This document shows, piece after piece, positions 1-64,000 of a DNA stretch of 64,000 bases. This stretch comes from Amoebophrya sp. A120. Taxonomy: Eukaryota > Protista > Dinoflagellata. The first letter of the stretch is position 1, and each line of letters starts with the position of its first letter. The notes beneath the pieces are model-generated. The model saw only the letters and a list, made by a program, of their open reading frames with translations, was not told the origin of the DNA and searched no databases. A program made the translations under genes and the position numbers. The stretch lies in the NCBI GenBank assembly GCA_905178155.1, contig CAJINV010000008.1, forward strand, positions 2,294,001 through 2,358,000, in the 5' to 3' direction.

Positions 1-5
1 CGAAT

Positions 6-1121: not shown

Positions 1122-4100
1122 ATGCGCGACAAACATTTCCGTGCTGTGGGGGGTTTGTCGTCTAGGGCGCTTTTTGTTGTGATATCCACCTCTGAGCACG
1201 CTACCACGTCCCCAGCTTCGACAAATCCGCAACATCAAGCGACCTCCAGCAGCGCGACGAAAGTGACACCGAAGAATCCGGGTGAGAAAGATGCAGAAAA
1301 AAGAGCAGACGGCACTAAAAAAGTGAAGACCACTCTGCAGCAGAACAGTGTGCAGTTCGCGGAGGAGGCTCCTGCAGAGACGAAAATTATGTCAAATCGC
1401 GAGAAAAAGCGTCTAGCACGAATGCAGCAGCAGCTAGCAGGGACTAACTCCAAGAATGATGCAGGTGTGGGCAAACCTGGAGAACATACTGCTGCAGCAG
1501 CTGCGACGGGAACTACCTCTGTTAAATTGCGTCAACAGCAGATCACGAGCACGGTTGCAGCCTTTGGTGATGAAGAGCCACTACCAACATCATCTCAGCC
1601 ACAGGCAAAGAAAAGCAAGACGAAGATGAAGAACGCAGCAGACACGACATTGAGCAAAGACGCTACCTCGTCCGCAAGCAAGAAAACGTCGGGCACTGCT
1701 GGTGGGAGTGACCAGAAGCGCAGTGCGTCATGCGCCGCCGCTGAGAAGAAATCTCCGCCCAACTATGCCACGGTGCCGCAAGACACAAGAATGGAGATCG
1801 CTAACAGGTGAGATTGAGCAAGATTGTTTCAAACACAACCTTTTGATGGCTATGGGTATGAAGATCATACATGGTGTTTCCGTTTCTATCTCGCCTCCTG
1901 CTTGATACGAAGTGAAACCTTCGGTACTAATTGAATACGAGCGTGATGCTTATTACGAGCTAGTAATCATGTATGACGATAAGTACAGATGAAACAGATA
2001 GCGCGTACAACATCATGAGCGTACGCATTGGCAACCGAGGTTCTTAGGTACTACACAGAAGAAAAGCCTTGATCGAAATTCAACATTTTAAATGGCAAAC
2101 GATGTGGAGAAAAATACCGAGAATTTTTTTTTTTCAAAACAGAATCTGGGTTTTGTTCGAGCGTCGTTTGCAGGAGACGGACTTTCAGGACGTGCTCTCC
2201 ATTTGGGATTGGGACCTGCTTTCTGACCTGTATTCCAATGAGTACGAGGCAATTAAGGCAGCCCTGAGTTCAGAAACCGTGGTGCCTACGCCAGCCGCGT
2301 TTGAGGATACGCTGAAGCACGACTGGGCGAATTTGTTCGGGATCAAGGTGGACAAAGACTACGACGAGACGAGCAAGCTGCTCAGCACCCCGGAGTCCAC
2401 GGGGAGTGTCGTGGTCGGGAAGAGCGGCAAGCGAAAAGTAGCGGGCAAGGCGACGACCTCCGCGTCCACCAGGGGCGGTGCCTCCGCATCTGCCGAAGCC
2501 ACGAAAGACGGGATGAACGATATCAAATCCATGATGAAGGAGGGGAAGAAGAAATCTGCAGGAACACCAGGTACCGCGTCTGCGTCTGCGACGACCGGTG
2601 GCAATGCGTCGCTCAAGAAGGTGTCTGGTTTTCCTTCCGAGCAGCTGCGCGACAGGGGAGAGAAGGAAGCGAACAAAGCCAAGTCGGGGGAAGTCATGAT
2701 CGCCGTAGGGGGCAATGAGGGGATCATCGGGATGGATGCAGATGCAGGTTCTGCCGGCTCGGCAGCAATGCAAGACAAAGGCAAGAGCAAAATCGGTAAT
2801 CATTCGGTCAATTACGCCAGCGCCTCTGCCGCCGGTGCTCCACTGATGTCGTGTTTGAGCAGCTCCGAAAAGGACGGCGACCAGGCCCAGGGCGCGCCAG
2901 AAACACCAGATCATTCGCATTCCGGCGCCTGCTCGCGAACCGCTGTCACCAGCACGAGCCTGTCCTCGGTAGTACAGGAGCCGTTCCGTGTGCAGCCAAA
3001 GCAGCGCAAAAAGGACAAGGTGGATGCGAAGCAGAACCAAGGTAAAGGCTGCAAGGCTGTTCTGTTTTTTCTGCTGTAATATACAGTGCTGGGAACAACC
3101 GATCGTGAACAGTTGAGGTTCAGTCTACTTGACCGAGACAGACGTAACTCTTTTGACTGTGAGCGGGTTTCTGCCCGTCGATGAGGTTCTTTTGGTGTAA
3201 TGTTTCTTGTTTGCTGAAATCGAAAGAGCGAAGTCAATGCAACTCCGCTTCGTTTTTAAATATTACACAGCCCTTCCTGCTATCCGTGTTCCGCCCGTGG
3301 AGGAGCTGCAGCTGCACTGCTGGGAACGCCCCGACGGGTTGCTGTACTTTCGGAATCACCAGGTGTATCCCGAGAAACGCGCCACCCAGATTTGCCGCAA
3401 TCTCCGCGACTGCAAGCTCGGCCTGCGGTGTCCGGACGCGCACTGTCCCGAGGAGATGGAGCCGAAGACGGCGGAGCAGGTGGAACAGATGAAGGCCAAA
3501 CTGTTTTCCCAGTTCCGGGCTAACAGCGACTGCTGCTACGGGTTTCACCGCCTCTCTCACGGCGAAAAGGTACTCCTGCTCGGCAACCTGGAGCAGGCTC
3601 TGGGCGCGAAAAACGTGGGAAACGCCAATGGGGTGCTGATGACGAAAATCCGTAGCATATCGTGTTTAAAAACGTCCCCACCCCATAGTTGTAATGCAAA
3701 TCTGCATGCTGAAACCAAACTGTTTCTCATGCGGAGCCCCATGAGAAGCATTTTCTAGTCGTGTTGTGCGATTTGTCATGCTCCAATCAGCATGACATAC
3801 TAGATCTGTGATGCTGTTGAACTAGTAGCTCAAACAGCACTACACCACAAGTTGAAATCTGTCATGCGAAAGAGCCAAAACTTGTGGATTTGTCTAGCCG
3901 ATTCCCTATCTTGACTATGGGGTGGGGGCGTTTTTACATACGATAGAGCATGGTTTGTAACCGGCGGGCGTTCCAGGAGTGGCCGGACAACTTTGACCTC
4001 GTTCCGGACGAACGATTCTATCTCGCGGTGCACAAAGAGCTGGACGCCAACGTTCGCCGGGCCTTCGAGAAACTCACCCACCTCGAGCGCATCACGGTCA

Positions 4101-7100
4101 TGCGGGAGGGACCCCTGCACTGGAGCAGCAACCAGTCGGCTGCGTTGATGTCGTACATAAACAAGGTGAGGACCGGCGAGTGGCAGATGCGGGTGAATCG
4201 GGAGGCCAAGTTCCAGGAGCGAAGGAACATCACGAAAGAACGCATGTCAGCATCAACTACAACCACATCAAATGCGGAGCAGCAGCAAGTGCAAGACGGG
4301 GGTGCAGCTCCTGGTGTTCCTGCAGCGGGGGCCGGTGACCATGTTAGAAGTGGTGCATCAGGCAATAACAAAAACATCTCGTCGTCGTCCTCGACGAGTG
4401 CCGCTTGCTCGCCGCCGTTGCTGCAGATTAGCAACCCCCGTGGTTCTGCGGAACAACCACCACAGCGATGTGCAAGCGGGGAGAAAGGCCTTAATTTTGC
4501 TTCGGCGAAAATAGCTCACACCAAGCCGAGCAACGACCTTGAAAAATCCTCCCAAGTGGTCGTCAACGCCTGTCCAACAAGTACATCCGAGCCCACGAGC
4601 GCGGGAAAATCGCAGCCTACCGCAACGTCGAATTACGTCGCCTGCAGTAATAGTTCTCCGGAAACGCGGACAATGAGCAACTTTTTCGGGAGTGCTGGCA
4701 ATTTTTACACGAACAAAACGAAGAACGGCACATCAAAAATGAGCAAGGCTTCTTGCCCTGAAAGCGAACACGGTGAGGAGCTTACGCTGGCCAGTTCTGT
4801 CCCGATGACGAACAAGTCCTCCCCCGCAAGTGCGACAAAGACGAAGCACACGTATCAAATGTAAAAATGTCTGGGTCTGGAAGAATGCAAGTTTGTCATG
4901 CTTGTCTCACATGACTCTTAAATTTGTCATGCACATTACCCAAGACCGCCATTTTTCTGTCATGCAGAAACGCAGTTTGTCATGCAGAATAGGCAACACC
5001 AAGAAGCTCAGAAACTTGTCATGGTGAGCCAGCACTTGTAGCCTCCTCATGATACGCCGCCCAGCATTACAAGTTTCCAGACCCAGACATTTTTACAGTT
5101 TATAACACGACAGCTACCGCCAGGGGTCTAGCTCCAGCGGGGACGGTTGCATCAAGCTTTTTGAGTAGTTCCACCACCTCCAAAGGAGCTCCTGTGTTTT
5201 CCGCCACCTCCGACACCGTAGTTGCGGAACCGGTGAACAAGAAGAAGTACACAGCTGAAGAAGATGCTGATGAAGCAGATGACTTAGACTCATTTCCCCC
5301 ACCTGGGTTGTCGGAGCCAGCGACATCGAAGCAAGATAGTAAATCCACCACCGCCACCTACCTGTCCGGGGGAAAGGACCGAAGCAATTTCTCCCCCGTA
5401 TGGGCTCCTCAAACGTTTTTACAGTGATCGCTGTTGCATGTTGATTTGGCATGCAAAATTATTTGACGACACGATCAAGCTACTTCGCACGCAAGAAGTT
5501 CTTCACGCACTAAATGGCGTTCATTGCCAAGAAATCGGTAAAAATCCAAGACGCGCAAGCTCTAGCTCCCCCCTGTCACTTTTGCTCGCCTTGCAGCTGC
5601 GCAGAAGCATGGAGCAGCGATCTATGTCGCGTTTGAGAATGCCATAACCCAGCACGTTGCAGCTGGATCAACAGTCATGCTCGGTTTCACCGGAGTTTGA
5701 CCTGACCAGAAAGCTGATCGACGAGTTTTCGCATGAGCCGGACGCTACGAACGCATCCGGTTCGAAGAAGGTGCTAACAGCGTCTGGTCGCCCGGTGCGA
5801 TCACCGGAGCAGGATGTGTCCTCAGCCACTTCAGTCACTGTTGCTGGGGCCCCTGCTCCTTCTGGGCGCGGTCAAACAGCGACCACAGCAACGCACTTTT
5901 CGTCTTCTTGGACTGGAGCGAGCAAAAGCAATGCAGCCTCTGTTTGGCAGCGTGGTCTTCACAACACGACCAAAGGTAGTTTGGCCACGGGGGGCGCGCC
6001 GCTAGTACCTCCCGTACAGCAGCCACCGACCGCAGCCGCTGCAGCACATAGCATTAAAGGACAACAGCAGGCGACAAATTATAGCACCAGTAGCAAGGCC
6101 AAAGCCGCGTCAACAGCAGCTGCCTCCGTTCTTCTCGGCAACAAGACATCAAAACCAGACGAGATTAGCAAGTATAACTACAGCAAGCAACTAGTCAGCA
6201 AGGCGGTTCTTTCTCGCGAGGAGCGACTCGCACAAGAACCGCCGCCTCGCAGCCCGCCGGGCCTGAGCAAGATGAGCCCCACCACGCCCGGACTTCTTGG
6301 CAATAAAAACCTTTCGGCGAGCAGTAACCTGGCAGATGATCACGAGGACAATCTTCATAAGAAAAGCATCACCGATTCTGCCACCCTGTTTTTACCGCCA
6401 CCCCCTATGGTGAAACCCCCGCCCCCGCCGCTGTGCAGGCCTCCTCCGCCACCAGGACTCACGCCGGCGAAGTCCGAGCATGGCGGGACGTCGAGGGGAC
6501 CAGCGCGCGCAGGCGAGGAAGACGAGGTCCGCAGCGACGCAGACGGGGAAGATCCGAACCTCTTTTCCCCGCCTTCGAGGACCAATGTGTATGGAGAAAT
6601 AAACACCAATGGAACTACGACCGGTGTGGAGGGCACGGACCCCAGCTCTGATGCTGCGAGGCGCGACGAGGAACAGGAAGGGCAGCAACAAGAATCAAGA
6701 ACTGCTGCACTTCTACCGCTCAACAAAGCAGGTGGTCCCTCTACTGCTGCGTTCTTGAAGAAGAGAGAGCCTAGCAAGGTGTACTTCGGGCAGCAGGTCG
6801 TGGTGTCACCTGCCGGTCATTACAATTTGCAAGGCAGTTCTTGTAGTACTACAGAGGTCGCGGCGGGGAAAAGTAAAAGATCCAGCGATGTTGAGCAACC
6901 ACCTTCCGGAACTACACCCGCAGGTGGTGCCAATGTTAAAGTAGCTGGAAATAGTACAAGAGGGGCCGATGAGGAAAGAAGTGCTACGCTACTATCGGCT
7001 CGACGAGTTACGGTGACGAATGACAGTAGGAAGAGCACCACAGGTGAAGACCAGGACGCCGGCATCCAAGAAGACGTCGTAGCGTCGACCTCCATGGCGA

Positions 7101-8983
7101 GAACGGGACGCAAAGTGGCCACCTCTACAATGAAGGACTCGTCGAAAGTTTTGAGCAGCGCAACATCTTCAAAGACCATCACCACTTCTGGAAAGTTTAT
7201 TGCACCATCGTCGGGTCGTGTAAATCAGCAGAAGCAAAACACAGCCCAAGACAATTTCACTGCTTTGAAGATGAGAACGACCGAAGCTGACCAGCCGGAG
7301 AAAAAGCGGAGTCTCAGTAACAGTACGTCGTCATACACGAGCTCAGGTTCGTCGTCGTCCTGGGACGAGCGAGAGAAAAAGGTCCTCGTGGCAACAGCGG
7401 CGAGAGCAAAAGCAACGTTGAAGGCCTCAGACAGGAAGCGCGCAGCGGGCCTGGTGCCATCCGCCTCGACCTCCGCGAGGACCGGTGGTGGCGGAGACGT
7501 TGTCCTACAACCAGCACCGAGCGATAAGGAAACGACGGTTGTAGTTCCAGTAGCTGTTTCTGAAGATAATATGTTGACATCCAGGACGACCGGAGCGGTC
7601 GATTCGACATCCAAAAACGAACCAGGTCGTCCTGTGAGTGGTGGCCGACTCATTTCCCCGGTCCCGGCAACGTCAGCCAATATCGAGTATCTTACGGCGG
7701 AGGAAATGACAGAGGCCCAAAAGCAGCAGCGCGAGCAGGAACTTTTCCAAGCCTTGACCCGACCCCCGGAGGAGGACTTTCTGCATTACAGCAGCAGTCC
7801 AGAGAAACTCCTGAAAGAGAAAATCAGGCTACGAAGCACCAACATGGGAAGCAGTGCTAGTGGCGATAAGAACAGGAAGGAGAGTGGTCAACACCTTTCA
7901 GGGGGATCATCTTCATCAAATGGCAACGTCAAGAACAGCAACACCAATCAAGCGAACCTGCAACCGCTTAGCGATTCGGATTTGGACCTGCACGCGGCGC
8001 TGGACTTGCTGAAACAGCAGCACGAGCCCCAGACCAAGATCATTGTATCAAATGTAAAAATGTCTGGGTCTGGAAGATTCTGACACTTGTCATGCACGTT
8101 TTGCATGAGCCATGATGTCTGTGATGCATACCCTAGCAATGCAGATTTTTTGAGGGCTTCCTGATGCCTATTCCGCATGACAAATGCCTTCTCGTCGTAG
8201 CAAAAATTGCACTCCCTTTGCTACTCATGCAATACAGATTTTTTTGGAGTCCAGATGCAGCATCACAAGTTGCATTCTTCCAGACCCAGACATTTTTACA
8301 TTTGATACATTGAGCGCCGCATCAACTTGCTACCACTGATGCAGTATCCTGTGCAAAAGTATCGTACTCGTATTGCAATCATGCATTACAAATCTTTGTC
8401 TTTCCCTTAATGGAAATCAGCATTACAAATTTTATCCCTCATGCTGAGTTGGAAATTTGTAATGCATTTATACGAGTACGATACTTTTGCAATTCATATG
8501 CAGGGCCTACCGGCGAGCAGCATCGAAGAAAAGAGCCACCAGATGATGGTCACAGAGAAGGAGAAAAAGAAGACCTCCAAGATAAAAACGGGAGACATGA
8601 TTGGGACCACTGCCAAGAAGCACAGTCACGCAGTGGATCATGGTCGTCTGGGAACAAACGAAGATACATTATCTTCTGAGGACGAGTTTGACAAGATACT
8701 CTCAGCCTCGCAAGAGACGAGCGGCACGAACCATAAGGGTAACATGATGTTCAGTCAGGAGGACATTCTGCGGATGGAACGGTATGCTTTGCAAAAGTAT
8801 CGTACTAGTATAAATCGCATTAATAAGCATGTGAAATGGAATTTGTTATGCTGTTTTAGCTTAAGAAGGCGATCTGTCATGCATAATTGCGATTACTACG
8901 AGTACGATACTTTTGCACAGGATAAACGGCAACGCCACGACATCTTTGGCGCGCTGGCGTGGGGCAATTCATTATGCAAATAA
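1122..8983 (+). CDS. Large multi-exon protein with a CCCH-type zinc finger and long low-complexity regions
   Basis: Exons ~1122-1807, 2143-3041, 3271-3657, 3951-4852, 5110-5398, 5652-8045, 8313-8344, 8504-8782, 8930-8983 join in frame through 2 GT-AG introns (1808-2142, 3042-3270) and 6 introners. Motif CRNLRDCKLGLRCPDAH (C-x5-C-x5-C-x3-H). Start codon uncertain. Confidence 0.75.
3658..3945. mobile_element. Introner, family C
   Basis: TIR TATCGTGTTTAAAAACGTCCCCACCCCATAGT; TSD TAGCA/GAGCA; removal gives KIRSMVCNRR in frame. Confidence 0.9.
4853..5104. mobile_element. Introner, family A
   Basis: TIR TATCAAATGTAAAAATGTCTGGGTCTGGAA; TSD ACACG; frame restored. Confidence 0.95.
5399..5646. mobile_element. 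Introner, degenerate family D
   Basis: TATGGGCTCCTCAAACG...CGTTTGAGAATGCCATA; eroded TSD CCCCG/ACCCA; removal of element plus 5 nt restores the frame. Confidence 0.8.
8046..8307. mobile_element. Introner, family A
   Basis: Near-perfect ~32-bp TIR; TSD CATTG. Confidence 0.95.
8345..8498. mobile_element. Introner, family B
   Basis: TIR TATnnnnTGCAAAAGTATCGTACTCGTA; TSD TGCAG. Confidence 0.95.
8783..8924. mobile_element. Introner, family B
   Basis: Family B TIR; TSD AACGG. Confidence 0.95.
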
Positions 8984-9257
8984 AAAGAGTCTTACTCTTA
9001 GTGTTCTTGTAGTTGTACAGTTAGACAGACTGGATGGTTTTCAAAAAAGCAAGACACTACACAACGACCACTGTGGTCATGCCCGAAATACTTCTAGCGA
9101 GTCCCGCTCCCGACGCAAGTACTTGCATGCGTGTACACCCGCCTGAGGACGATCGCCGCGTTGCAAGTTTTGTTGCTCATTCAACATGCGAAGCGAGTCT
9201 GTTCATCTATACGCAGAACAGGTTTTGTGGCTGTGCGACTGCTGCTGCTAAAGTTAG

Positions 9258-12200
9258 TTGCAACATCCGGTCTGTATCTGTAAGCCTTTTTCCCTTGGAT
9301 ATTCATCCCTGGACGAAGACCAGCAGATTTATGTCGGAGCTGGGGCCGCCTCTGCCACTGCGGCTCAAATGTCGAGTGACATTGCGTCTGGAGCCGGCGC
9401 GCACGATGTTACGGGCGCTGGCGTGGATCTCCTAACAGGATGCACTAGTGGTACAACTGGCACCACTGCGGCCGGCGTGCTGGGAGGCAACGGAACCACG
9501 TCAACCACGGCGGCCACAGGTACTCTAGCACTTCCGTCATTATTTGAAGCGTGCGTTGTTTTTTTTTGTGCGCTTTGCACCTGCGTGACGAAGAACAAAT
9601 GTTGCCTGCGTGACGAAGTTTTCAGATGAACGAGTTGGTGTTGGTGCATTTCTTTTACTGAAACGTCACAGTACATACTCAAACGTATCAATATCAACTT
9701 GACAAACAGTCGATGCGACGAGCCCGCTACACCCGGATCATCATGCCACTACCACCACTGCAGCTCCTGTCCCTTCGAACACAAGAGCAACGTCTTCGGG
9801 CATCTCCACCGCGAATTATGACCGAAGTCAAACATGGCAAACTATTCAGCTGACAGGGCAGAGCCAAAACGCAGGATCATCAAGTGAGACGGATGCCGGC
9901 GCCGCGAATTTTGCTAGCGCGACGAGTCGTGGGCTCCTCGGTGCACGGAGCGGCCACATTCTCCCCGGTGGACGCCGACGACCTGGTAGTACTAGAAGCC
10001 CAGGTACTAAACTGAAAAATGTCTGCAGCAAAAAAAATCAAAATTTTTGGTAGTGCAGTTTGCGCCCTTCTCTTCTCGCCCGGACTGCAGCGCGCTGGTG
10101 AGCGCCGTGGCCTCCATGCTGGGGAACTTGACCGAGGTGCTGTGCTCCATTCCTGCTGCGTCGTTTGGTCGAAGCTCCCGCGCGAGCTTGAAGGCCCCCT
10201 AGTAGCCAGCCCAAGCCCTAGTCCTCAGGCTTCTTGTTCTGGAAGTAGTTCCTTTGGTCATGCTCCTGTCCAGCATGCCGCGGACCTCAGCCAGGTACTT
10301 GGGCGTGAAGCCCCTCCCGCCAAAAGTGGCAATTTGTAATGCAGGTCTCGCATTACAAGTGGCCTTTTCTTGTGACCCGTTCTGGGTCAGCTTTCTGGAC
10401 CGCATCACAAATCTGAGCTCCTGAATCGGCAGAATGCCGTGCTGTGAGGGTTCAGATTTGTGACGCAAAACGTGGCTCCGCCAAAAACGTCTGCACCTCT
10501 CCACTGAGGTCCCCAAGTGGAGGTGCAGACGTTTTTGGCGAGGGGGGGGGGAAAGTGAGGCTGATAGCTCGTGTTTGTCTGCGCCGCCAAAAACGTCTGC
10601 ACCTCCGAAATTGGCCTCCAGATGAGGTGTCCTTGGACACCTCTTCGGAGTCGTCCCGAGCCGCGGACCTCCGGGGCGATAATTTGCGGCCGCCCTTTTC
10701 GCAGGGCCCCGACCTGTATCGGGCTCAATTTGCAGGCAAAAGCCTGCAACTTGAGCTCATCCCCTCTTCGACCTCCTCGGAGGCCGCGAGGTTTAAACCA
10801 AAGGCGAGCCTCTTCTTCAGCAAATTCAACCCATTCGCAAACAAGGCACGCACTCGGTAAATCGTCAGGAAGCAGGAGGGAGTGTGAGAACTTGAAGAAC
10901 TACAACTGCGGACCCGGGTGGACGACGTCCACCGATACCGACGTACCGAGTCCCCCGGTGGCTGAGTTGTCTCCTCTGCTTCGTCCGCCGAGGCCTTGCC
11001 GGAATACCTGGCCTAGCCATTTCCTTGTTTGTTGTTCATTGTGAAAAAAAATAAACACACAAGCAGATGGACGCCGACGACCTGGTAGTACTAGAAGCCC
11101 AGGCAGATCGCGTGGCGGAGACGGACCAGGAGCGACTGCTGTGGGCAACTACATGACCAGAGGCACAATTGGGACAAATTTGCTGATGAACAAAGCGCCA
11201 AGTAGAGTCGTGCCGCCTCCGCCCGCGATCGTTTGCCAGAAGAAGCACCGCGTGATCATAGATTATCATGGTATTGAGCTGACCGATGACGGCAAAGGCC
11301 AGGAAGAGGGGTACCTCGCGTTGAAGAAAGGATGGCATTGTATTCCGTACGGAAACACCCTGGCTTTTGGTCACGAATACAACAAGTATTTAATACCTTA
11401 CTTGTTGGCTCCTGCTTTCATTGTTACTTATTATATTAGAAGTCGATCTAGAAGAGATGAAATATCGAGCAAGCTCTACTGCGTAACAAGTGTAGTAGTT
11501 TTTTGTACATATAGAAAGGTCTAGTTCATCACCGCGTACGCCAGACGGCCATGTTTATTGTCATTCGTTGTCAATGAATAAACAAAGGTATCATTACTAC
11601 GTGTACGGCAAGTGTGTGAATATGAACAAGGAAGGTTGGTTTCCCGCGGAAATTTTGGATTGCAATCCTGAGCAAGTGCGCCACGACGCGACTTCGGACA
11701 CACCCACAGGAGCGCTGGCCTCGTCGGCCACTAGTCAGCAAATATTGCAGGCACAGCTCCTAGCGAACATCGAAGGTGGTGGGAACGCAGCGCAGATGCA
11801 GGGAAATGATGACGAGAACAAACACGCGTGCCAGGTTCTGGCAAATCCGAGCCCGTCATCTTCCAGCGAGGGGACAGGAAGTGGTGGAAAGAAACGCACC
11901 CCCGCTGCAGCAGCGCTGGCTGTGTCGTCGAATCACGCGCCCGCTACCATATTAACTAAAGGCGCTTCTGTATCTCTCGCGGCAAAAAATAACAAGAATT
12001 TCAAGGGTAGTTCTTCATCTAGTTCTAATGCGGTCAGCAAAGAGGACGCGTCGGGTAGAAGCTCCGTCTGGCAAGAGACATACCGGAGCAGTACGGCAAC
12101 TCCGCAGAATTTTCAGCAACCTTTGACGACTTCTACCAGCACCGCAGGGACTGCTACAACTCTGAATACCGCAGGAGGTAGTTCTTCGCGCGGCAACACC

Positions 12201-14575
12201 AATGTGGCGCAGGGCAACAGCAACAAAGGCAACACTGCGCCGCCCTCCTCGGCTGGAGCTGGTAGTACAACTAGTGTGTACGCACGTGCATCCGGGAAGA
12301 GCGTGACTTTCCAATCCGCCAAGGGGCAGCAGCTGCACGCCAGCAACACAAGAACGGGCTCATCTGCTGTTGTTCTACAAAGGGGCGCCGGGGGAGGCAC
12401 CTCAACGGCAGCCAGCAAAAGTGGTGCCGCGCGGATTTCCGGTGGTGGAGGTCCCGCCCAGCAGACACCGCAGCACATGCTGGACTCGAGTGCTGCGGCG
12501 CCGGCGCGCGGTAATACAGTGACCAAATCGGCGAAGGGCCAGGGCGGTTCCGTCGCCGCGCCCGGAGGCAGTGCAACTGCGGCGGCTGCAGTAGCTGCCG
12601 CGCACGCGAAGAACGTTGCGGGGGCATACACTGGTGCTAATACAGGTGTGTTGGCGGGTAGCTGCAGTACAGCTGCGGGTGTAGCAGCAGGTCATGCCGG
12701 TGTGCATCATCCAGAATTGCTTGTTGGTGGAGTTCAATCTCAGCAGCACCTGGCACCTGCTGCGTACGTTCAGCATCATCCACTTGCACCACCTTCTCGA
12801 CTACATCAACAGGGTCCCGCGACCAGTAGCGCCGCGGCATCTTCCCGGGCTGCGTCTCTGGGTCCCCCAGGGGCCGCGGGACATCACACGTACTATAACC
12901 TGCACCAGGCGGCGGCCATCAACACCAACCCAATGGCCATCAGCCCGGCCGTGTGTTATCATGATCTTCCGCACGGGTCGCCCTATCTTTACGGGTACGG
13001 CATGCACGGCGCGAGCGGAATAGTTCACCCTGCCGTGTTGCACGGACTGTACTATGGCATGGCAGCAGCGGCTCCTGGAGCCGCGACTTACCCCCCGGTT
13101 GCCGGCGTCGGCAAGGCGGGTGGTCTCGGACCGCAACACTGTGTCGTTTCCCAAAGTGCTACCGCGATTCCCGCAGCGGCCTTTAACGCAGCCGGCGCAG
13201 CCTCCGTGGCGGCCTCCCCGGCCGCTGCACAGCCGTCGATCGCAAAAGGAAAAGCAGCGGTCGCTGCAGCCGCAGCTGGCGCAAAAGGCGGGATGGCTGG
13301 ATCCACGATTTCAAGTGCTGGCGATATTCCTGTTGGGCCGGGTGCGGCGACGTTTTTCTCATCGTCCTCAAAGGGCAGCACTAGTAGTTCGGGAGCATCT
13401 GCTGCTGCGGCCGGGGGAGGGTGCGAGCAGAAAGACGCGTCCGGCGGAACAAAGATCTCCTCCAGCGCGGGCAGTGCAGCTGCGGCTGCAAACGACACTA
13501 GAACTACAAATTACACCACGGCAGCGGCCGGCGAAGGCGGAGGCGCGAGTGCTACCGAAACGAGAAAAACGACGACGACCCCGAGTGGAGGTGGACAGGA
13601 AGCAACAACCTCGAAACCAACCTCCTTACTCGCCCAGATGTCGGGTTTGGTGACACAGGCCGCGATGGCGCAGCGGCAGCAGCGCCATCAAGCACAAGTG
13701 CAGAATGCGAATGCTAGCAGGGCTGCAACGGCGATGAGTAGTACAAGCACGAGCTCTGCGAAGGACTCGGCGTCCTTGACTTCCGCCGTGGGAGGCCCGG
13801 ACTTTTCCGCTAGTGCCACCGCACCTCCCGGTGTACTAAGTGGGACAGGAACTACCGCAACTCCTCCAAATAATTCTGGTACAATAGCTCCTGGGGGTCC
13901 GCGTGCAAGCCAGACGGCGACAACTGATGGCAGCAGTTCTCAGCCACCCCCGATGAAGGGACGGATATCGAGTGCAAATATGTCATCTGGGTCTCGATGG
14001 TTTCGAGGATTGTCATGTTCGTCATGATCTAGATCTAGAAGAGTTTGGTAGAGGGTGAGGCTGGCGATGAGGATGACTCTGAGCGGCCCTGTATTGCGTG
14101 ACCTCGTAGACGTAGAGCTCCTCTTGTCTCCTGTGTCATGCAGAAGCGGAGTTTCTCATCCTCATCCGGAAAACACAAAAAATCTGAACAAGACATCATG
14201 CTTCGCGTTGCATTTTTACTGTGCTTCTTAAGTAATTTTATTCACTGACATGCAACCTCACCCAGACATTGAAATATTCGCAACGCATAACGGAAAGCGT
14301 CCGCGTATTTCGCCCGACTTCGGGTCCACGAGGACCACGTCGAGGCTCCGCCCAATCAGGGGAACAGCCCCGTGCTGCAGCAGTATTACGCGAAAGGTAA
14401 CGCGGCATTTCACATGCAGCACCACTACGTGCATGCGTACCACCAAGGCGGGGCCGGGGGACCGGGTGCAGGAGGAGGTAGCGGCTATTACCACTATGGT
14501 CCGCAAGCGAGCCACGCTGGGAGTGGTGCGACTTATGCAAGCAAGAAGGGGAATGGGAAAATGCCGATAAAATGA
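9258..14575 (+). CDS. SH3-domain-containing low-complexity protein
   Basis: Exons ~9258-9519, 9710-10003, 11067(or 11103)-11385, 11588-13965, 14295-14575 are in frame. The spliced HRVIIDY...EEGYLALKKGW...YVYGKCVNMNKEGWFPAEIL resembles an SH3 fold (GWFP motif). 5' end uncertain. Confidence 0.65.
10004..11066 (+). other. Long GT-AG intron flanked by a perfect 36-bp exonic direct repeat
   Basis: Repeat at 9969-10004 and 11068-11103; donor CAG|GTACTA; in-frame acceptors at 11066 or 11102. Confidence 0.7.
13966..14289. mobile_element. Introner, degenerate family A-like
   Basis: TAT...TCTGGGT / ACCCAGA...ATA; perfect TSD ACGGA; frame restored. Confidence 0.8.
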
Positions 14576-16909
14576 AGTACTAAGCCTCGATAGGATTCTG
14601 AATAGAACTTCGACCCCCGTTCTCGCATCTCGATGAAGTTTTAGCAAAGCATCACCCGCCTCCGGGAATGCAAAATGGACATTAATTTGTGTGGTACAAA
14701 AGCAAATGAGGGAGCTTCACTTTACAATGTTGTCTCTTATTTTTTTTAGAATTTCCTAGGATCTTCCATTTTCGACACTAAAGGGGTCGGCGAAGTCATT
14801 GTTTTGCACGACCGCTAAAGATAAAGAGAAGGCACCGCCATTCATTTGAGCAATTTCATCTGAGTCTTGTCTATATATGGATATGCTTTTTTTTGTACTC
14901 TAGCAAAAAGATCGTAGATACTACCGAACTGCGAAAAGCGAACCCATGTAAGTAGCTGCAATTGCAAGCACTTGAAGAGGCAGTAATTTTGACGTTGTCT
15001 TGGTCTGGTTATGATCACCACATGAATGTCTGTGTATCCATAAAACAAAAAATGAAAACTAAAGATGGCGTTGCTATTGCAATACTTTCCCACTTAGATG
15101 AGTGAGCCGCTCTTGAAACATAAAAATGAAATAAATATAGTACGGATACGAAGACGAAAAAAAGAAGCCCAAGGCGAATTATCGACTACCAGGCATAAGA
15201 CAACGGAAATTTTGCTTAAACCCGAACGTATTTATTTTTGGCCATGTTTCTAAGGCATAAACTGAGTATGATTGCAACGAATTCTTGAGTAGCCATTTCT
15301 AGAAAACCTCGGCCTCTTGCATATTCTGCTAGTATCACCTGAATAAATGAATTTTTGCACACGAAATTTCTCATCTGCCCCCGTGCCCCTGAAGAAGATA
15401 CCAATCTTTTGAATTTCAGTATATTATAGTTCACAATGAATGTGCTTCGATGAAGTTGTAGCACGCTGCTCATAAAATATTTTGATTCTTCATCTTCTTC
15501 TAAACCCAAAAATTAACATCTGACTTTGTTTTCTTCTCTTTCGGTGCCAAGCGCTCTCCACAGGCTTGGTAGCAAAGTAAGAATGTTCGCGACGACACGG
15601 AATTGCTTTTCTTCATGAAATACGAACACAAATACGACAAATGATTTCTGTTGCTTTTTCTCTCTTTGAAGGGTTTGCGATTTTACTTAACCAAACCGAC
15701 CTGGCGCCACTAACACTCTAATTTGGATGTTTACAGCTTTAGGAACTTCGAGCTCAATCTTCAGGGCATATATACACCTTGATCATGCAGATGTAGTACA
15801 GAAGTTGAGGTCGCTTGGCTCAGCGTGTTGGACAACGGCGAGCGGCATCAGCAAGGTTTTTTTTAAATAAACGTTTTCAATAAATCAGTAGTAGTTATTA
15901 AGGTTTTATTACACCGACTTCATTATTATTGGGAAGAACACAAACTCCGAATCTTGCAACTACAAAACAGTGAGGCACGTAGATATTGAAGTTGAGCCCG
16001 GCTGCTTAAGATGTGGATTGAGCGGGGGACGAGATGGAGATGAACAAACTTTTTTTCAGATATGCATTTTTTATGCGAAGTCTGATTTCTTTTAGGAAAA
16101 CAAATCAATGTCTACTTCAGATCACCCGATTGAAGCGACATATCTTACTTTCTAATGAGAAAGCGACCGAATACGAAACAAATCAGAGCGAGCCGAATGT
16201 TGTGGGCCAACCTATGTGTGTCGCACGCCGGCCCCCGCTGAAGACCAGCGGCAGTCGTGTGTCAAAAAGATGACCTAGCCGTAGCCGAAGCCGTGCAGTC
16301 AATAATGCCGATCCGTCAATTTTGTCGTGTTTTTCCCCCTTCATCGTGCTCATCTCGCTCTCATGGCTCTAGAAAAGTGGTCGCGCCCGAACCGAAGGAT
16401 CCTGGCTTTTCTTGATCCTCTTGGCTATGACTATGCCGACGTTCTTCTTTCATCACTCACACCCAAGTCTAGTTCCGGTAGAAGATGATCCTAGGCAGAT
16501 CTTTTCAGTCAAAGTGCAGTAAAGTTGTTGGTTTTGTTCCGAAATAGATCTTGATGATAATTTTCTGTGTGTTGTTGACGCATTCGCGGTTCCACCGAGA
16601 TATGAATGTATGAAGCTTTTCTGCTTTTTCCAGTGTGGTCCCGTCCTCGCGTTTCGAGGGTCGCGTAGATACTCCTGGAAGATATTGTGTGAGCTATCAC
16701 GACGATAGTTGCATGAGCCTTTCTTTGAAATGACATAGAAAGCAATGTCGCAATTGTGAACGAGGTTTGATATCTTTAAGAATAGGTTTTTAGAAATGCA
16801 AGGAGGTTCAGCTTCTATTTCTCCTGTCTGGTAAATTTGGACCGTTATTCTTATTAAGTGAATCCCAATAGATACTTCGATATCCACATCTTTCTTCGTT
16901 GACGTCACA

Positions 16910-46888: not shown

Positions 46889-49800
46889 ATGGCGAAGTTC
46901 GAGTCCTCAAAGAATGCGCAGAAGAATATCACCCATGGTCTGGCCCAGCAGCTGCACGCGCCAGCAAAAGGGCTCCCCACGACCCGGCCTTCCGACGCGC
47001 GGCAGGACACGAAGGGAAATTTGCTTTTGCACATGGACAACGAAGAGAGTTATTTCCCGAAACAGGTAAACGACGCATCTTCCGGTACCTGCTCGCCTGA
47101 AAATGCCGCAACTACTGCGAATCACTTTGCCGCGCACGACCGATGCACGACGAGCAATGTGCTTGCCACCGCGGCGCGAACAAATGATGTTGAGAAAAAT
47201 GTTCCAGCTGAAAGCGATCACAACTCCGAGAGTGACCACGACCACCAGCCGCTGCTTGACTGCAAGCCCGACCTGATCCCAGGCGAAGAGATGGTGCGGC
47301 AGATGAAGCGAGGCGTCGAAACAAAGACACTGTCCAAGGTGCTGAAACGACTCAAGAGCTCGATCGTAATCTCCAGCACGGACCAAGATCGGTGTGCGGA
47401 TTTTTTGCGCGAGGAAGGTCATCTGCAGCTCGACCAGATGGGACAAAACGAACTACAGGAGATGAACTTTAGTAAGCAGATCAACTTCAACGGCTCGGGT
47501 GAGAAAGACGAGGGTGAAAATGTTGCCTACACCGCTCGCGGGAATGCAACAGCACCCGCAACAGCCGGGGATGAGGTGAGCCGCGACAACTCCAGTTGCA
47601 CTCAGTGGTCGCATGATCAACCACCGGAAGAACGAGGAGCTTGTGTGGGGACGATGGATCATAAGACTGCTCTGCAAAAATCTTTTCCAAAGTTGCAGAC
47701 GACCCAGACCGCCCACTTCGGTACGAGCTCGAGCCGCTTTCTCGGCGGCGAAAATCCAAGTGGTCCAAGTTCTCCTGCGGATGCTGGTGAAAATAATTCC
47801 CAGCACGGCCAAAACCTTGTTGCAGCGCTTCCGAATGCAACTACGACAGTTCCGACAAACCCAACCATCTCTACGCCGCTCGTCCGGGACATTAGCTCGG
47901 AGGCGGACGCGGTGACCCCGCCCAACGGGAGCAATTCCAACGATGCCAAGTTTGCCACAACTTCCAGCAGTGATGACACGAACAGCGAGTATCGGCTGGA
48001 CCGTCACACCAGTCGCAACACGTTCTGGAACGCGCGGACCACGGCAGGAGCTGGCGGTGCCCCGGGCGGGTACAACAACCTTAGCCCCCCACGAAACAGC
48101 ATCAGTCCCTCAATCACCGGCGCGACGGCGGGCACCAGCAGATTCCCGAAAGACTTGACGGGCACGACGAACAACTCCGTGAAAATTTTGAAACTAGAAG
48201 TCGAATCCGACGCGGTCCCGCTCTCCGCAGTCGGTTCCTCCTCGTCAGCGAAACACGACGACAAGATGAACGGCGGAGAATGTTGGGGTACTAACGGAAT
48301 AAATAACACGGCGGGCTGGAGGTCGACGGACGGGCGCAGCGCGAGCATGGCGTCCTCTACGGTTTCGAACGACCTGCTAAAGACCAAGAAGAACATCAGT
48401 AGCCTGGCGTCCTCAAGTGCGACCAGCGTTGCGTCCGGAGCAGGCTGCTCGAGTACAGGAGCGGCGAATGATGTTAACGATGTGCGAACAAACTACATTA
48501 ACGGCAAGGACGAGAAAAAGATGTCGAACATGAATAAACACGACGCTTCTTGGATGTTGTCCGGTGTTGAGGACATGACGAACAACAAGGGTTCATCGGA
48601 CAACGCCAGTTCAGAAGAAAGTCACTTCGCCTTGAGCCGCCAGCGAACGACCAGCAAAGACCGCGCGGATAGTACCAATTTCCACGACGGTGACGATGTG
48701 GACCACTTTCCGGCGCTGGCTTTCACGGTGACAAAGGGCATCAGCGGGGTTTTATGGAGTTCTCAAATGTTACATTCTCAACTTTGGCATGGATTTGTAA
48801 TGCAAGAGTGGCAAAATTGAAAGGGGGAAGATTGCGCCTTTTGCATTACAGGTTTGGCGTAGATTCTCATGCTATCTAGCAAGTCGCGAACTTGTCATGC
48901 GAAGCAGCTTGATCGTGTAGGTATTTATGGCTAATTTGCATGCCAAATCCATGTAACAGTTGAGAATGTAACGTTTGAGAACGCCATAGGTGTCGAAAGT
49001 GGGTTCGAACCAGAGCCAGTCGAACAAGAGCATATTACAGTGAAAAATGCCCCCACCCCCAATGTTGCAATAATTTGTGATGCGAAGTTTCCAAATGAAA
49101 GGCCTCTGTCATGCATGAAAGGAATATGAATCTTTGTGATGCAGATTCTAGGCGTATATAGCATTGCTTGCATGACAAGCGCCGCTCTTGCTGGGATCTT
49201 TTGCAATGCAAATTTTTGCTATTCACGATCGGAAATCTGTGACGCTGATAGACGCAAGAGAGCGAGTGTTTCACTTGGAAAGGTTTGCAATACAAATGCT
49301 CCCAAGTTCGGGGGTGGGGGCATTTTTCACTTTGATAGAGCATCACCTCTGTTTTGAGCCCGGCCAAGTGCTCCGAATGGACCGAGGAATCGAAGGGAAT
49401 CGGAGGAGGTACGTAGTTACTACGAAAAAGGAGATACTTCTTTTGTAGTACATAGCTTTATCTTTATTGCTACACGAAAAGGCGGTGCTGGTACGCTTTA
49501 TGCGTCTCTAGAAACCGCAACGGGAAAATCGATTTCGACAATCTCCGGGGCTTTACTTGGAAAAATAGCTTTATACGCAATCCTCGTTGTGTACGACGTG
49601 GTGCGCCGATCTCTACAGGGAACGTGTGATAGTGAGAGCTACTACTACACATTAACGGCAACCAGGTCTACCCATCCCAGCCGGGCCGTTCGACAACAGT
49701 CCTGCGCGCGGGAAAATGGCTGCAGCCGCACAGCAGCAGGAACCGCCACAACAAGCGGAAGCCGTGCAGATGGAGATCCAGCAGAAACACGAAACCCTCT

Positions 49801-55244: not shown

Positions 55245-55830
55245 GTCCGGACCGAGGACCGGAGGCCAACAGACTCCCGCTCATGTGTGTCCCCCTTCTC
55301 CTTTCTTCTCTCTTTATATATTGCCTCGCGAGGGACTGGGGGCCGAGGATGGGAGACCAACAAGCCCCCTCCTATGTGTCTGGGCTTTCTGCCTTCTTAT
55401 CTCGTCAGCCATTACCTTGCGAGGGACTGAGGACCGAGGACCGGAGACCAAGAAACCCCCTTTCATGTGTCTCAGCTTTCTACCTTCTTATCTCGTCAGA
55501 TATTACCTTGCGAGGGACTGAGGACCGAGGACCGGAGACCAAGAAACCCCCTATCATGTGTCTCAGCTTTCTACCTTCTTATCTCGTCAGGTATTACCTT
55601 GCGAGGGACTGAGGACCGAGGACCGGAAACCAAGAAACCCCCTTTCATGTGTCTCAGCTTTCTACCTTCTTATCTCGTCATGTATTACCATGCGAGGGAC
55701 TGAGGACCGAGGACCGGAGACCAAGAAACTCCCTTTCATGTGTCTCAGTTTTCGACCTTCTTAGCTCTTCAAGTATTCCCTTGTGAGCGACTGAGGACCG
55801 AGGACCGGAGACCAAGAAGGCCCCTCTCAT
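55245..55830 (-). repeat. Subterminal tandem array with 91-bp period (right arm, inverted)
   Basis: CCGAGGACCGGAGACCA recurs every 91 bp; reverse complement of the left array. Confidence 0.92.
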
Positions 55831-56107
55831 GAGTTGCGAGGAAGGTTCTTCCTTTTGCGGAAGTTGAGCGGTTGAGTGTTGTTTGTTGTTGTTGGCACGA
55901 GCCCAAATAAGCAGCATTCCAAGCGAAACACCTACCATTTTTTCACCTGGAACAAGTGCAACGACTTGGATTCCCATCGTGATCTGGTTAGTAGGTGGAT
56001 CCCTTCGGAACACAGAAAATAGAAGAAAGGGATAGCATGAGAGGCGTCTTGGGTGTGTGTGTGTGTGTTGTGTAAAGTGTGGAGGAAGTTGGCTTCCTTG
56101 CTTGAAT

Positions 56108-56375
56108 TGCGAAACGCGAAAAGCGAAAAAAATACAAAGCCGACCCATAACAGAACTCATATAGTAAGCAAAGAGAAGGGGGAGGCGGCTGCCGAAATGC
56201 GAAACACGGAAAACAAAAAGAGCCCCAAGACAATGAATATAGTAAGCAGAGAAAAAGCGGAAGCGACCCACGAAAAGCGAAGCGCGAAACGCGAAGAAAG
56301 CGACCGGGGAAATAATTAGCAGAAGAGATAAAGAGAAGCGAAAGCCGCCCCCGAAATGCGAAACGCGAAAAGCGA
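56108..56375 (+). repeat. ~80-bp tandem array (left arm of nested element)
   Basis: GCGAAACGCGAAAAG-type units, 4 copies. Confidence 0.85.
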
Positions 56376-58159: not shown

Positions 58160-58530
58160 GCCGCTTTTCGCGTTTCGCATTTCGGAGGCGCTGTCGCTTT
58201 CTCTCTTCTTACTCTACTCATTATCAGGGAGCCCACCCCTGTCGCTTTGTTTTTTTTCGTGCTTCGCATTTCGGAGGCGCTTCCGCTGTCTCTCTTCCTA
58301 CCCTACTGAGCAGCCACGGCCCCCCTTTGGCTTTTCGCGTTTCGCATTTCGGAGCCGCTTCCGCTCTCTCTCTTCCTACTCTATTAATTGCCCACGGCTC
58401 CCCTTTGGTTTTTCGCGTTTCGCATTTCGGAGGCGCTTCCGCTGTCTCTCTCTTCTTACTCTCCTAGTTCTCTATTGCCCTCCTTTGGTTTTTCGCTTTT
58501 CGCGTTTCGCATTTCGGAAGCGCTTCCGTT
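58160..58530 (-). repeat. ~80-bp tandem array (right arm of nested element, inverted)
   Basis: TTTTCGCGTTTCGCATTTCGGA-type units, 5 copies. Confidence 0.85.
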
Positions 58531-58873
58531 TTCTCTATAGTTAACTTGACAGATCTGCAATCTCTTTTAGGAAATTAGGCGAATCACAGCGGTGCTCTGC
58601 TTATTTGGGCTCCTCCCTTGTTGTTGCAGTTCTTGCTCAAGTAGAGAAAAAACGCCAATCACGATGGAGCTGCTGTTATTCCGTACCATGCCAAGGACAA
58701 GAAGGTTTGAAAAAAGTAAACGGTTTTGTGCACACGCCAGACTTCAGTTGAAAGTACGCTTTGCATGCTTCGTCCATGCCATCACGCCGATGACCACTTT
58801 TCCCTTCCAGCCTGTTAAGTCTGTCTAAGTATGGAAAGTATATTAATCGCAATATAGAAAAACAATATTCGGC

Positions 58874-61800
58874 ATGCCATCACTTTCACTCCGCAACATG
58901 GTCACTGTCAGACGCTTCTCGAGAGTGGTCCTCCTGGCTGGGTTCTTGAGCTCCGCGCCGATTTTAACCCTGCTCACAACCTTCTGCCTCGCCCATCGCC
59001 CTGAGCAGGTGCACTTGACGGTCGGCTATGATCCCGTCAATACCCGCATCGTACAGTGGGCAGCCTTGGACGAGCAGGATGTTTCTCCCTACCCCGTTTT
59101 CGTTGTTTACGGCAAAGACAAGAATGCGGTGGAACGCTACAACGCGTCGACGACAGTAGGATCTTCCATATTGGAAGCAGCGGGATCCAGCCCCGACGAG
59201 GAGAGGCTAGTTGTGGCACTTGGGAAAAAACACACAGCCACGTCGAAAAAGAGTAAAGTATCCGATGACTTCGTTTTCGCGACACACAGCGATACTCTTG
59301 CGAAGATCGCAGTTCGCCAGGCCCGCAGTTTCGTTTTTCACGTCCAGGAATGGGGTGAATCAGGCGACCCCACAACATGGGCCGGGTATAAGGACTTCGA
59401 AACTTTCAATATCGCACGGAATTACACGATGCACGTTGCAGACATTGCGCTTAGGGACCTAGTACAGGAGAAAAAGACATCAAACACGACATTCTCGGAC
59501 TTCGTCTACTACAAAGTCGGTCGTTCCACGGATCCGGGAGGGGGGTGCCGACCAGCGACGGAGATGTCAACAGCGCCAACGCTTCTGCTCTCGCAGATTG
59601 CGAATTTTGTGACGGGCAAGAAAAAAGCTGCAGCGCAGCGCAACAACTATCAAGACACCTGTTGGTCCAAGACGTTTAAGTTCAAAACGTCACTACCGGA
59701 CGCAAGTTTATTGTCCACGAGTGCACCAGACTCGCCGCGAGCTGCTCGCGACGCGCCGCGTTCCGAATTGCACGAGGAATCGAAGAACACGCAAAAATCT
59801 TCAATGGCATCTGCTCCGATACAACCAGGTGTGGAAACCAACGGCGAGATGACGTCGAGCGACAGGGCCGCCATTTTACCTTCTCCGCATACGTTCGCCG
59901 TGTACGGGGATATGGGGGACTACAATGGCCAGTCCCGCCCCATGATTTTGCAGCACCAGAAAGACTATCAAATGTAAAAATGTCTGGGTCTGGAAGAATG
60001 CAACTTGTCATGCTAAATCTGCAGCATGCAAAAATCTGTGTTGCATGATTACCAAAAGTCGCCCAGTTTTGACCAAGTCGGGGGGCAGTTTCTCATGCAG
60101 GATAGGCATGAGAAAGATCGCACAGAATCTGTCATGCTAGGTCCTGCATTCCAGACCTCATGGGTCATGGAAAAGCTGCATGACAAATCGCGCATTCTTC
60201 CAGACCCAGACATTTTTACATTTGATAAAGACACCAACTACAACCTCACCGCGCTCCTCCACGTCGGAGATTTCGCCTATGCGTTCTCAACTGTTACATT
60301 CTCAGCTGTTACATGGATTTGCGATGCAAGAATGGCAAAAGTGAAAGGGGTCACCTTGCGCGTCTTGCATGACAGATCTGGCGCAGATTCTCAGCCTGTT
60401 TGGCTCTTCGAGCATTTGTCATGCGAAGCAGCTCGATCGTGTCAATTCTGATTGTGGTTTTGCATTTACAAATCATGTAACAGTTGAGAATGTAACGTTT
60501 GAGAACGCCATACCGCCTACGATTTCGAATCGGACAGCGGGTTGAATGGGGATCTGTACATGCGCGACATGGAGGAAATCGTCGCTGAGCTGCCGTATCT
60601 CACCGTCCCCGGGAACCACGAGGACCATTACTACTACAACCACTACTACCACCGGTTTCTGAACCAACCGACCCCGCCAATCGAGAGGAAACTGCACAAC
60701 TTTGAGCACTTCAGCAAGTATCACGCGCAAGTAGCTCCTGGCGGTAGAAGTACAATTACAGATACCAAAGCCCGTGGAGGTTCTCCTGGAACTGCTGGTC
60801 GTGAACATCATCAAGATCAAGAGCAGCGCGAAGATCTGTACCAGAACTTTTGGTACAGCGTCGGGTTTCCGAACGTCGGCAAGTTCGTTTTCTTCACGTC
60901 GGAGTTATCCACAGAAAAAAACCCACCCACATCCAATTTGTCACGCAAAACGCGCATCAAGTCATGTGTTTGTCATGCAAAAAATGGATGTGAATGGTTT
61001 TTTTATTGTGGATAGGAGTTCTACATGAAGTACAACCTGGACGACGCGCTGGTCCGGCACCTGCGCGAGCTCCAGTACGCTTGGCTCGAAAACTATTGGG
61101 GTGTCAGGATTGAAATCTTCAAAGTTGAAAAGGTTTGTCATGCATAAAATCTATAACCACTTGGAGCCCCAGTTTCCAATCGGCGCATGACAAATTTTCC
61201 TGGCCTGTGAAGCAAGTCTGTCATGCTGTTTAGGGCAAGAGGGCTCCTCCCTGTGATGCTAGCGAGCAATCCAATTCATGAGCCTTGCCAGCACTATACT
61301 CTGCTTCCTTTGCGTCCTCTGCAATAGAGTCAGTCTTTGTGTCGCATTTTATGCATGAGAAATCATTTCAACTTTGTTGATTTCAAACCTGACACATCCA
61401 TAAAAACGAGCTGAAGAGGACCGACCGAGAGCAGTTCCCGTGGCTCGTGCTCGCGTCGCACCACCCCCTGTACTGCAGCGCCGGCCCCCGGACGGTCGGG
61501 GACTGCGGAGACGAGGCGCACACAATACGGACCGGCGTCGCACAGTACCGGGTCGCAGACGAGTCTTCTACTACGGTCCACCTCGACGCTGCAATGTTAA
61601 AGGAGGATGTGGCACGACACGCACAGGCACCAGTAGTGGGCAACAAGCATTACGGCGAGAAGCTCTCGGGATCTTTGGACCAGCTTTTCTACGAGACCGG
61701 AGTGGACCTCTTCCTCGCGGGTCACGTGCACAACTACGAGCGTATGTTCGACGTGAAGCCCGCGGAAAACAACGACCCCACCGGCGTGAACAACTGGAAC

Positions 61801-63909: not shown

Positions 63910-64000
63910 GTAGTTTGTTTCAGTGTGTCATGGGAGTTTCATCTTTCGGTTTGGGTGGTGTCTTCATCTTTCTCAGGGTGGTGGATTTGATAACGCTACA

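Follow-up and report, generated by a model that had tools for sequence, protein, structure and literature searches.

Introner elements within the coding sequence of Amoebophrya sp. A120 and a probable single register for their removal

We analysed a 64,000-nucleotide stretch of the dinoflagellate Amoebophrya sp. A120 (assembly GCA_905178155.1, contig CAJINV010000008.1, forward-strand positions 2,294,001 to 2,358,000), here called the window, in which short inverted-repeat elements ending in TAT and ATA interrupt protein-coding genes. Coordinates are window positions, elements are named by their first base, and all elements and host genes lie on the + strand. The host genes identified encode an unnamed protein (P0121), a MOV10/SDE3-like RNA helicase (P0001) and a purple-acid-phosphatase-like protein (P0122) (Table 1). 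The helicase exon matched P0001 and the phosphatase exon matched P0122 at 100%, both proteins being sourced as Amoebophrya sp. A120. The elements are the introner elements published for this strain (Farhat et al. 2021, PMC7789003) and the class is already known, as the first-pass annotation of this DNA had thought probable. PMC7789003 describes 29,850 A120 introners of about 240 nt in many families, with ends made of TAT, seven less-conserved nucleotides and at least three As, and with direct repeats of 3-5 nt (5 bp in the legend of Fig. S19). Their removal was supported by RNA, splice sites were variable relative to the hairpin with the border unknown, and the mechanism was left open. The window elements share with them the strain, the inverted TAT-N7-AAA ends, the direct repeats, the division into families and removal outside the GT-AG rule; what they add is a probable single register, a dispensable direct repeat and removal in both orientations. 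Of the later papers, PMC11453091 restates the view of "highly variable motifs", the available part of PMC12787238 adds nothing further on mechanism, and PMC12130899 covers A120 introners including an integrase-related family with terminal inverted repeats (TIRs).

A scan of the window for TAT...ATA sequences with TIRs and a 5-bp direct repeat returned 27 candidates, of which 20 had a perfect repeat; each of ten shuffled controls gave 0-3 candidates, all with imperfect repeats. Two candidates (8360-8924 and 26409-26942) were at chance level and were discarded, as were cross-element pairings and pairs scoring low with a position weight matrix (PWM) of the termini, such as 1857-2138 and 15035-15366. 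The final set, built from the scan, the terminal PWM, probable-RNA contigs and protein mapping, held 34 elements of 109-421 bp. Without 764 (outside the span first annotated), 8973 and 20302, the earlier count and size range are recovered, 31 elements of 109-324 bp. ATA ended every element and TAT began 33 of 34, the exception being 20302, which starts with TAC. The 5-bp duplication was perfect in 23 and eroded in the others, and all 34 elements lay inside open reading frames (ORFs), both as first described. No element was found in the six GT-AG introns of the host genes or in a 9-kb stretch free of long ORFs (49500-58800).

All elements shared the termini TAT-N7-AAA(A), and 22-32 of the 34 had an A at each of positions 11-15. 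BLAST grouped 33 elements into 8, 13 or 16 clusters at E thresholds of 1e-3, 1e-5 and 1e-10. The claim of at least nine unrelated families was thus dependent on threshold, and because of the shared ends the families are not unrelated at their termini. Five clusters were multi-copy at 1e-10, sequencing run X5 showed many different flanks, and members of the same family occurred in both orientations within + strand genes. [quoted passage not shown] No transposase family was found among the 23 window ORFs scanned and no Rfam match in 1-29500 or 49520-64000; Pfam matches to PP_M1, ABC_toxin_N and Zn_ribbon_LapB were below cut-off and treated as noise. Ginger2/Tdd transposons have TIRs and TDD-4/5 make 5-bp duplications, like the window elements, but assignment to Ginger1 or Ginger2 was rejected as Ginger ends are TGTNR (PMC2836005) and window ends are TAT; the integrase-related A120 family is likewise reported not to be a Ginger (PMC12130899). 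Over 8046-61402, 13 of 33 gaps between elements measured 31-107 nt as compared to 2-6 expected under uniform placement (P<0.001), and the shortest gap between successive elements was at least 31 nt. Such clustering would fit elements that hop locally or insert next to one already in place, and it suggests a minimum exon length.

Contig evidence for removal was limited to 7500-26500 and came from runs X1 and X2, which derive from one sample and whose RNA type is our guess. The elements were missing exactly from these probable-mRNA contigs together with 5 nt, that is one copy of the 5-bp repeat (element+5), as the first-pass annotation had predicted of transcripts. The X1 and X2 contigs skip 13961-14289 (324+5), 18061-18362 (297+5) and 21548-21795 (243+5), and the 369 nt of an X1 contig between a piece that ends at 19086 and one that begins at 20717 are the exact remainder after four further element+5 removals. 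With a piece end at 22957, eight removals were supported by contigs, and a single contig lacked six consecutive elements. Coverage in X1 and X2 was uneven and fell to zero at 10036-10669, within the GT-AG intron 10004-11066, and one contig piece begins at the GT-AG acceptor 11588; because of this empty intron and this start at an acceptor the two runs behave as spliced RNA. The DNA-like run X5 was unbroken over 11074-19116 and 20074-22993 with elements kept in place, at an even depth of about 42-59 on unique sequence. The raw RNA reads of run X8 came from a different sample under the same species label. Only 98 of them aligned, almost all to elements and with 90-95% similarity; the element family at 25120-25197 was matched at 90-95% and exons were unmatched. 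These reads place related elements in a different genome or locus.

Public gene models already excise these introns. Deletion of element+5 at 12 elements plus one GT-AG intron reproduced P0001 (1675 aa) exactly, restoring the helicase motifs HV|EG and DS|PSW as first claimed, and deletion at four elements reproduced P0122 (1026 aa) exactly with its GDFAYD motif intact. For P0121 the deletions agreed with the exon blocks at nine elements. The window introns of the three proteins numbered 31, made up of 25 elements and six GT-AG introns with no other kind, a census independent of the motif scan, and all 25 non-GT-AG introns obeyed one pattern. The earlier claim that element+5 deletion always restores the frame therefore stood for 25 elements through public proteins; for nine further elements the support was ORF restoration, and 31201, 40868, 41179 and 48753 are weaker cases because deletion of the element plus 4 or 6 nt outscored +5 in a local open-frame measure. 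Hypothetical retention would shift the frame at 22 of the 34 elements and introduce an in-frame stop at 11 of the remaining 12, the exception being 8783, where the frame is kept and stop-free.

To describe the cut we used the register r, the count of left-copy repeat bases that are kept, which is readable where the two repeat copies differ. Seven junctions were informative, four derived from contigs (18065, 20302, 21549 and 22964) and three from proteins (764, 5399 and 60278), and those of 3658 and 23458 were not (synonymous). Only r=4 was compatible with all seven, giving exon|N-TAY...ATA-NNNN|exon (Y, pyrimidine). Registers 0-3 were excluded by 764, 20302 and 21549, the three junctions that discriminate low from high registers, and register 5 by 5399, 21549 and 22964, the three that test it. 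Junction 21549, with no slippage and no microhomology, was the only one to pin the register by itself. As 1+4 equals the duplication length, the gene would be restored at any target sequence. The junctions first annotated had the right length and probably lay one base too far right (4853-5109 in place of 4852-5108). At register 4 the first intron base (+1) was A9 G8 T8 C9, starts with GT occurred in 8 of 33 and ends with AG in 2 of 33, and GT/GC-AG ends in 0 of 33. A GT-AG pair was available in any register in only 2 of 34 elements (30349 and 48753), in agreement with the earlier view that it is mostly impossible. Element 20302 has a GC-AG option at register 1 that is not used, and at 48753 the proposed register 4 is predicted to yield a different product from the GT-AG option at register 1. 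Mutated repeat copies create the possible GT-AG registers at 30349-30573 and 48748-48993, and these GT-AG-capable copies may be intermediates toward ordinary introns.

Published motifs bear on the register as well. In Table S4 of PMC7789003 the top nine A120 non-canonical motifs all start with N-T and the top nine A25 motifs all start with TT, and the N-T starts fit register 4. Several points weigh against a common register. Agreement by chance would arise in 9% of cases for seven independent uniform junctions and in 29% for the four RNA junctions, and three of the seven informative junctions come from gene models that possibly depend on the contigs. The N-T bias of published motifs may stem from tie-breaking by the aligner (HISAT2). 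Eight of the nine top A120 motifs end in A-N (PMC7789003 Table S4), an ending not expected from register 4. Because chance agreement stands at 9%, the single register is suggestive and not proven, and we hold fixed cuts 1 nt before TAY and 4 nt after ATA to be a probable general rule. In the open literature we found no paper proposing a fixed register for Amoebophrya introns; the figures and part of the supplement of PMC7789003 lay outside this search and may hint at one.

Elements with decayed repeats or stems indicated what carries the removal signal. Two of five repeat bases match at 21549 and at 764, and as 21549 is excised exactly despite this, at a junction without slippage, the direct repeat is dispensable for removal and is better read as a transposon footprint than as a removal guide. 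The terminal bases are not the signal because +1 is evenly A, C, G or T and AG ends are rare, and the element interior is not the signal because family members lie in both orientations. Folding z scores against pair-block shuffles were -2.9 or lower in 29 of 34 elements as compared to -0.8 to +1.4 in five GT-AG introns. Predicted terminal pair probability was at most 0.02 in 764, 8973, 13966 and 20302, and since 13966 and 20302 are removed all the same a perfect stem is unnecessary. Of a single excision system guided by stem-loop and direct repeat, as first proposed, the one rule was borne out at 25 of 25 non-canonical introns, and 21549 spoke against guidance by the repeat and 13966 and 20302 against the perfect stem. 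In the eight least self-complementary elements of the census, two of which score low solely through an indel, end positions 1, 2 and 3 were matched in eight, eight and seven elements and positions 11-14 in six or seven, compared to 0-6 and mostly 1-4 elsewhere. From this persistence in decayed copies we infer that selection kept TAY/ATA and the A/U tract once mobility was lost.

Together these data suggest the following course. A transposase would insert the element through a 5-bp staggered cut that creates the duplication, and element+5 is then missing from the product (eight elements in contigs, 25 in public proteins); these two steps we take as almost certain. The cuts would fall 1 nt 5' of TAY and 4 nt 3' of ATA, as shown at 21549 and compatible at six more junctions. 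Only the symmetric ends (TAY/ATA, with the A/U tract that lies 11-14 nt inward) would act as signal, assisted by the hairpin, and the spliceosome would take N-U-A-Y for a GUA(Y) donor with a relaxed +1, the acceptor being measured and AG not read. We give about even odds that an altered U2-type spliceosome removes the elements at one register, a reading favoured because register 4 puts N-TA(Y) where local donors have GTA(Y). Canonical donors in the window have GTA in five of six and GTAY in four of six cases, and TAY falls at +2 to +4 in register 4 alone among the six registers. A25 introns have TTA+RR ends (PMC7789003; R, purine), which would parallel GTA+RR. Spliceosomal proteins are reported nearly all present, along with U2, U4, U5 and U6 (PMC7789003), and for Fritillaria the working model is a U2 spliceosome that has adapted to non-canonical introns (PMC13326754, PMC11282704). 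The acceptors of the six GT-AG introns (1808, 3042, 9520, 10004, 11386 and 24262) are A/C-rich (AAACAG, ACACAG, AAGCAG, ACAAAG) with little pyrimidine tract beside AG.

An altered spliceosome has evidence to answer. Positions +1, -1 and -2 are unconstrained at register 4, no branch-point consensus was seen in the elements, the predicted stem would bury the donor in most of them, and TAT may be an end requirement of the transposase only. The U1 small nuclear RNA was undetected in PMC7789003 yet U1 proteins are present, so loss of U1 is uncertain, and the closest analogue, Euglena, is argued to be non-spliceosomal (PMC11282704, PMC12501133). A dedicated system convergent with euglenozoans might act here, with an endonuclease that cuts at measured distances of 1 and 4 nt from the base of the hairpin and an RtcB-like ligase that joins the exons. 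Such a system would accommodate the free terminal bases, the function of both orientations and the folding of 29 elements beyond that of GT-AG introns, and it has precedents in the paired trinucleotide at fixed spacers, the circles and the expected non-spliceosomal factors of Euglena (PMC12501133, PMC11282704) and in nuclease-ligase routes proposed for diplonemids (PMC12621601). However, the cut sits at the would-be spliceosomal donor (N-TAY against GTAY) and the poor folders 13966 and 20302 are still removed; no such enzyme came to light, none having been looked for, and we consider this system possible but doubtful. Equally tentative is the wider proposal that tens of thousands of "variable" A120 introns obey a single code, exon|N-TAY...ATA-NNNN|exon. 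Its reader would be a so far undescribed endonuclease-ligase acting on mRNA, distinct from the spliceosome, that requires neither +1 G nor AG and takes its measure from the transposon ends.

The remaining alternatives concern the register and the source of the skips. The register could vary by element or family, as the 2021 paper states, with the common register here due to chance, for which the 9% figure leaves room and to which the published variability of the sites and the distance of 1-5 nt between inverted repeats and splice sites (PMC7789003) would conform. This is unlikely given the junctions that exclude registers 0-3 and 5 and the disregard of 20302 for its GC-AG register, and slidable repeats alone account for apparent variability, as in Euglena (PMC12501133). 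The data are cDNA-type contigs, and the skips might be reverse-transcriptase template switches across the hairpin between direct repeats in RNA that keeps the elements. A hairpin with a direct repeat is a known substrate for this artefact. We find it very improbable, as the 21549 junction lacks microhomology, one contig lost six elements in a row, and retention would shift the frame or bring in stops at nearly all elements, through conserved helicase and phosphatase motifs. If the elements were instead cut out of the DNA of a somatic or stage-specific genome, in the manner of ciliate internal eliminated sequences, X1 and X2 would have to be DNA. Their run type is guessed, and a minor excised DNA form is possible as the X5 joints are repeat-dominated (15 of 868 listed), but the uneven coverage of X1 and X2, empty in a canonical intron and starting at a GT-AG acceptor, and the even depth of X5 with elements in place make this reading extremely improbable.

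Comparison with other transposon-derived introns placed the window elements apart from each described type. Euglena nonconventional introns (PMC12501133, PMC11282704) resemble them in TIR- and duplication-like ends, in junctions whose sliding concealed the code, in a trinucleotide that pairs and keeps a fixed distance from the cuts, and in a likely MITE origin. The Euglena code is N3-CDG...CH'G-N5-6|R, with an exon starting with a purine; the window elements depart from it, with N1-TAY...ATA-N4 and no exon bias seen. Circles have been shown in Euglena, an unrelated lineage. Introns of Fritillaria borealis (PMC13326754, PMC11282704) are likewise transposon-derived and non-GT-AG and are attributed to an adapted U2 spliceosome; they prefer AG-AC and AG-AT ends with U1 retained and U2AF duplicated, whereas the terminal bases in the window are free. 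The transposon-derived U12 introns of Physarum (bioRxiv 10.1101/2020.10.12.336362) have inverted ends, relaxed terminal dinucleotides and an RTATC donor resembling the N-TATC of register 4, but depend on RTATCYTT together with a TTTGA branch lying 9-12 nt from the acceptor. A U12-type reading was rejected for the window as the RTATCCTT donor and branch were lacking, only TAY was fixed and +1 was free; A120 is reported without U11, U12, U4atac and U6atac (PMC7789003). Within the genus, Amoebophrya sp. Kv retains GT-AG introns and U1 (PMC12005148).

Other features of the window were also recorded. A 7.4-kb stretch at 51257-58692 has a 51-bp inverted repeat (92%) at its borders. Inside it lie inverted 91-bp tandem arrays (51392-51887 and 55249-55831), and a 78-bp unit also forms inverted arrays there (about 56104-56375 and 58165-58509). 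ORFs tried in this stretch gave no Pfam match above cut-off, and it is possibly a foldback-type element. An exact 36-bp direct repeat (9969-10004 and 11068-11103) places the exon end before the 1063-nt GT-AG intron 10004-11066 again where the following exon begins. At 34733-35270 there is a tandem array whose period is about 109 bp, at 39464-39514 and 40550-40600 a 51-bp direct repeat with copies 1.1 kb apart, and at 28193-28286 an assembly gap of 94 bases.

Table 1. Elements, host genes and GT-AG introns of the window, with repeat copies (left/right), cut register and evidence
Feature	Position	Strand	Length (bp)	Repeat copies	Register	Evidence and remarks
Decayed element	764..1184	+	421	ACGCC/TCCAC (2/5 match)	4-5	P0121 mapping
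Element	3658..3945	+	288	TAGCA/GAGCA	uninformative (synonymous)	scan, P0121 mapping
Element	4853..5104	+	252	perfect		inferred intron 4852-5108; scan, P0121
Element	5399..5646	+	248	CCCCG/ACCCA	<=4	PWM, P0121
Element	8046..8307	+	262	perfect		scan, P0121
Element	8345..8498	+	154	perfect		scan, P0121
Element	8783..8924	+	142			element+5 = 3n, host frame stop-free, yet missing from P0121
Element	8973..9301	+	329			weak TIR; PWM, P0121
Element	13966..14289	+	324			329 nt skipped in probable-RNA contigs (X1, X2)
Element	18065..18361	+	297	ACGAC/CCGAC	>=1	302 nt skipped; contigs
Element	19093..19405	+	313			contig piece end 19086, 369-nt arithmetic; P0001
Element	19518..19755	+	238			369-nt arithmetic; P0001
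Element	19817..20095	+	279			369-nt arithmetic; P0001
Decayed element, TAC start	20302..20712	+	411	GGCAG/GGCCG	4-5	contig piece start 20717
Element	21549..21791	+	243	GTCCC/CTCGT	4	unambiguous intron 21548-21795 (C-TAT...ATA-CTCG); X2 contig
Element	22964..23125	+	162	CAACA/CAACG	<=4	contig piece end 22957; P0001
Element	23162..23387	+	226			scan, P0001
Element	23458..23649	+	192		uninformative (synonymous)	in helicase motif HV|EG; scan, P0001
Element	23687..23971	+	285			in helicase motif DS|PSW; scan, P0001
Element	24641..24891	+	251			scan, P0001
Element	24944..25204	+	261			scan, P0001
Element	30349..30568	+	220	GGGGT/AAGGT		GT-AG possible at register 3; sequence, ORF restoration
Element	31201..31355	+	155			sequence, ORF restoration
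Element	36235..36513	+	279			sequence, ORF restoration
Element	40868..41130	+	263			sequence, ORF restoration
Element	41179..41441	+	263			sequence, ORF restoration
Element	42684..42832	+	149			sequence, ORF restoration
Element	42889..43102	+	214			sequence, ORF restoration
Element	48753..48988	+	236	GGTTT/GGTGT		sequence, ORF restoration
Element	49033..49337	+	305			sequence, ORF restoration
Element	59966..60227	+	262			scan, P0122
Element	60278..60512	+	235	TCGCC/CCGCC	>=1	in GDFA|YD; P0122
Element	60906..61014	+	109			scan, P0122
Element	61094..61402	+	309			scan, P0122
Host gene of P0121 (unnamed protein, 3453 aa)	3..14572	+				begins upstream of window; 9 elements, 5 GT-AG introns
GT-AG introns of P0121 gene	1808-2142, 3042-3270, 9520-9709, 10004-11066, 11386-11587	+				protein mapping
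Host gene of P0001 (MOV10/SDE3-like RNA helicase, 1675 aa)	16862..25361	+				12 elements; outer open-frame limits
GT-AG intron of P0001 gene (its only one)	24262-24470	+				protein mapping
Host gene of P0122 (purple-acid-phosphatase-like, 1026 aa)	58847..62886	+				4 elements; outer open-frame limits

The class of element is itself published for this strain, and the interest of the window lies in a splicing code, probably a single one, through which the removal mechanism becomes directly testable. Should the 1/4 register apply across the genome, the splice motifs now reported as diverse would reduce to one code and annotated intron borders would be corrected. It would define the cut sites for mapping of lariats, circles and end chemistry and would explain how 5-bp-duplicating transposons fill coding sequence without harm. 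If removal is spliceosomal, Amoebophrya would have a spliceosome that dropped both the +1 G and the 3' AG. If an endonuclease-ligase is at work, insertions would be harmless in either orientation and the system would be convergent with that of Euglena, and a non-spliceosomal route would be a second such mRNA splicing system outside Euglenozoa.

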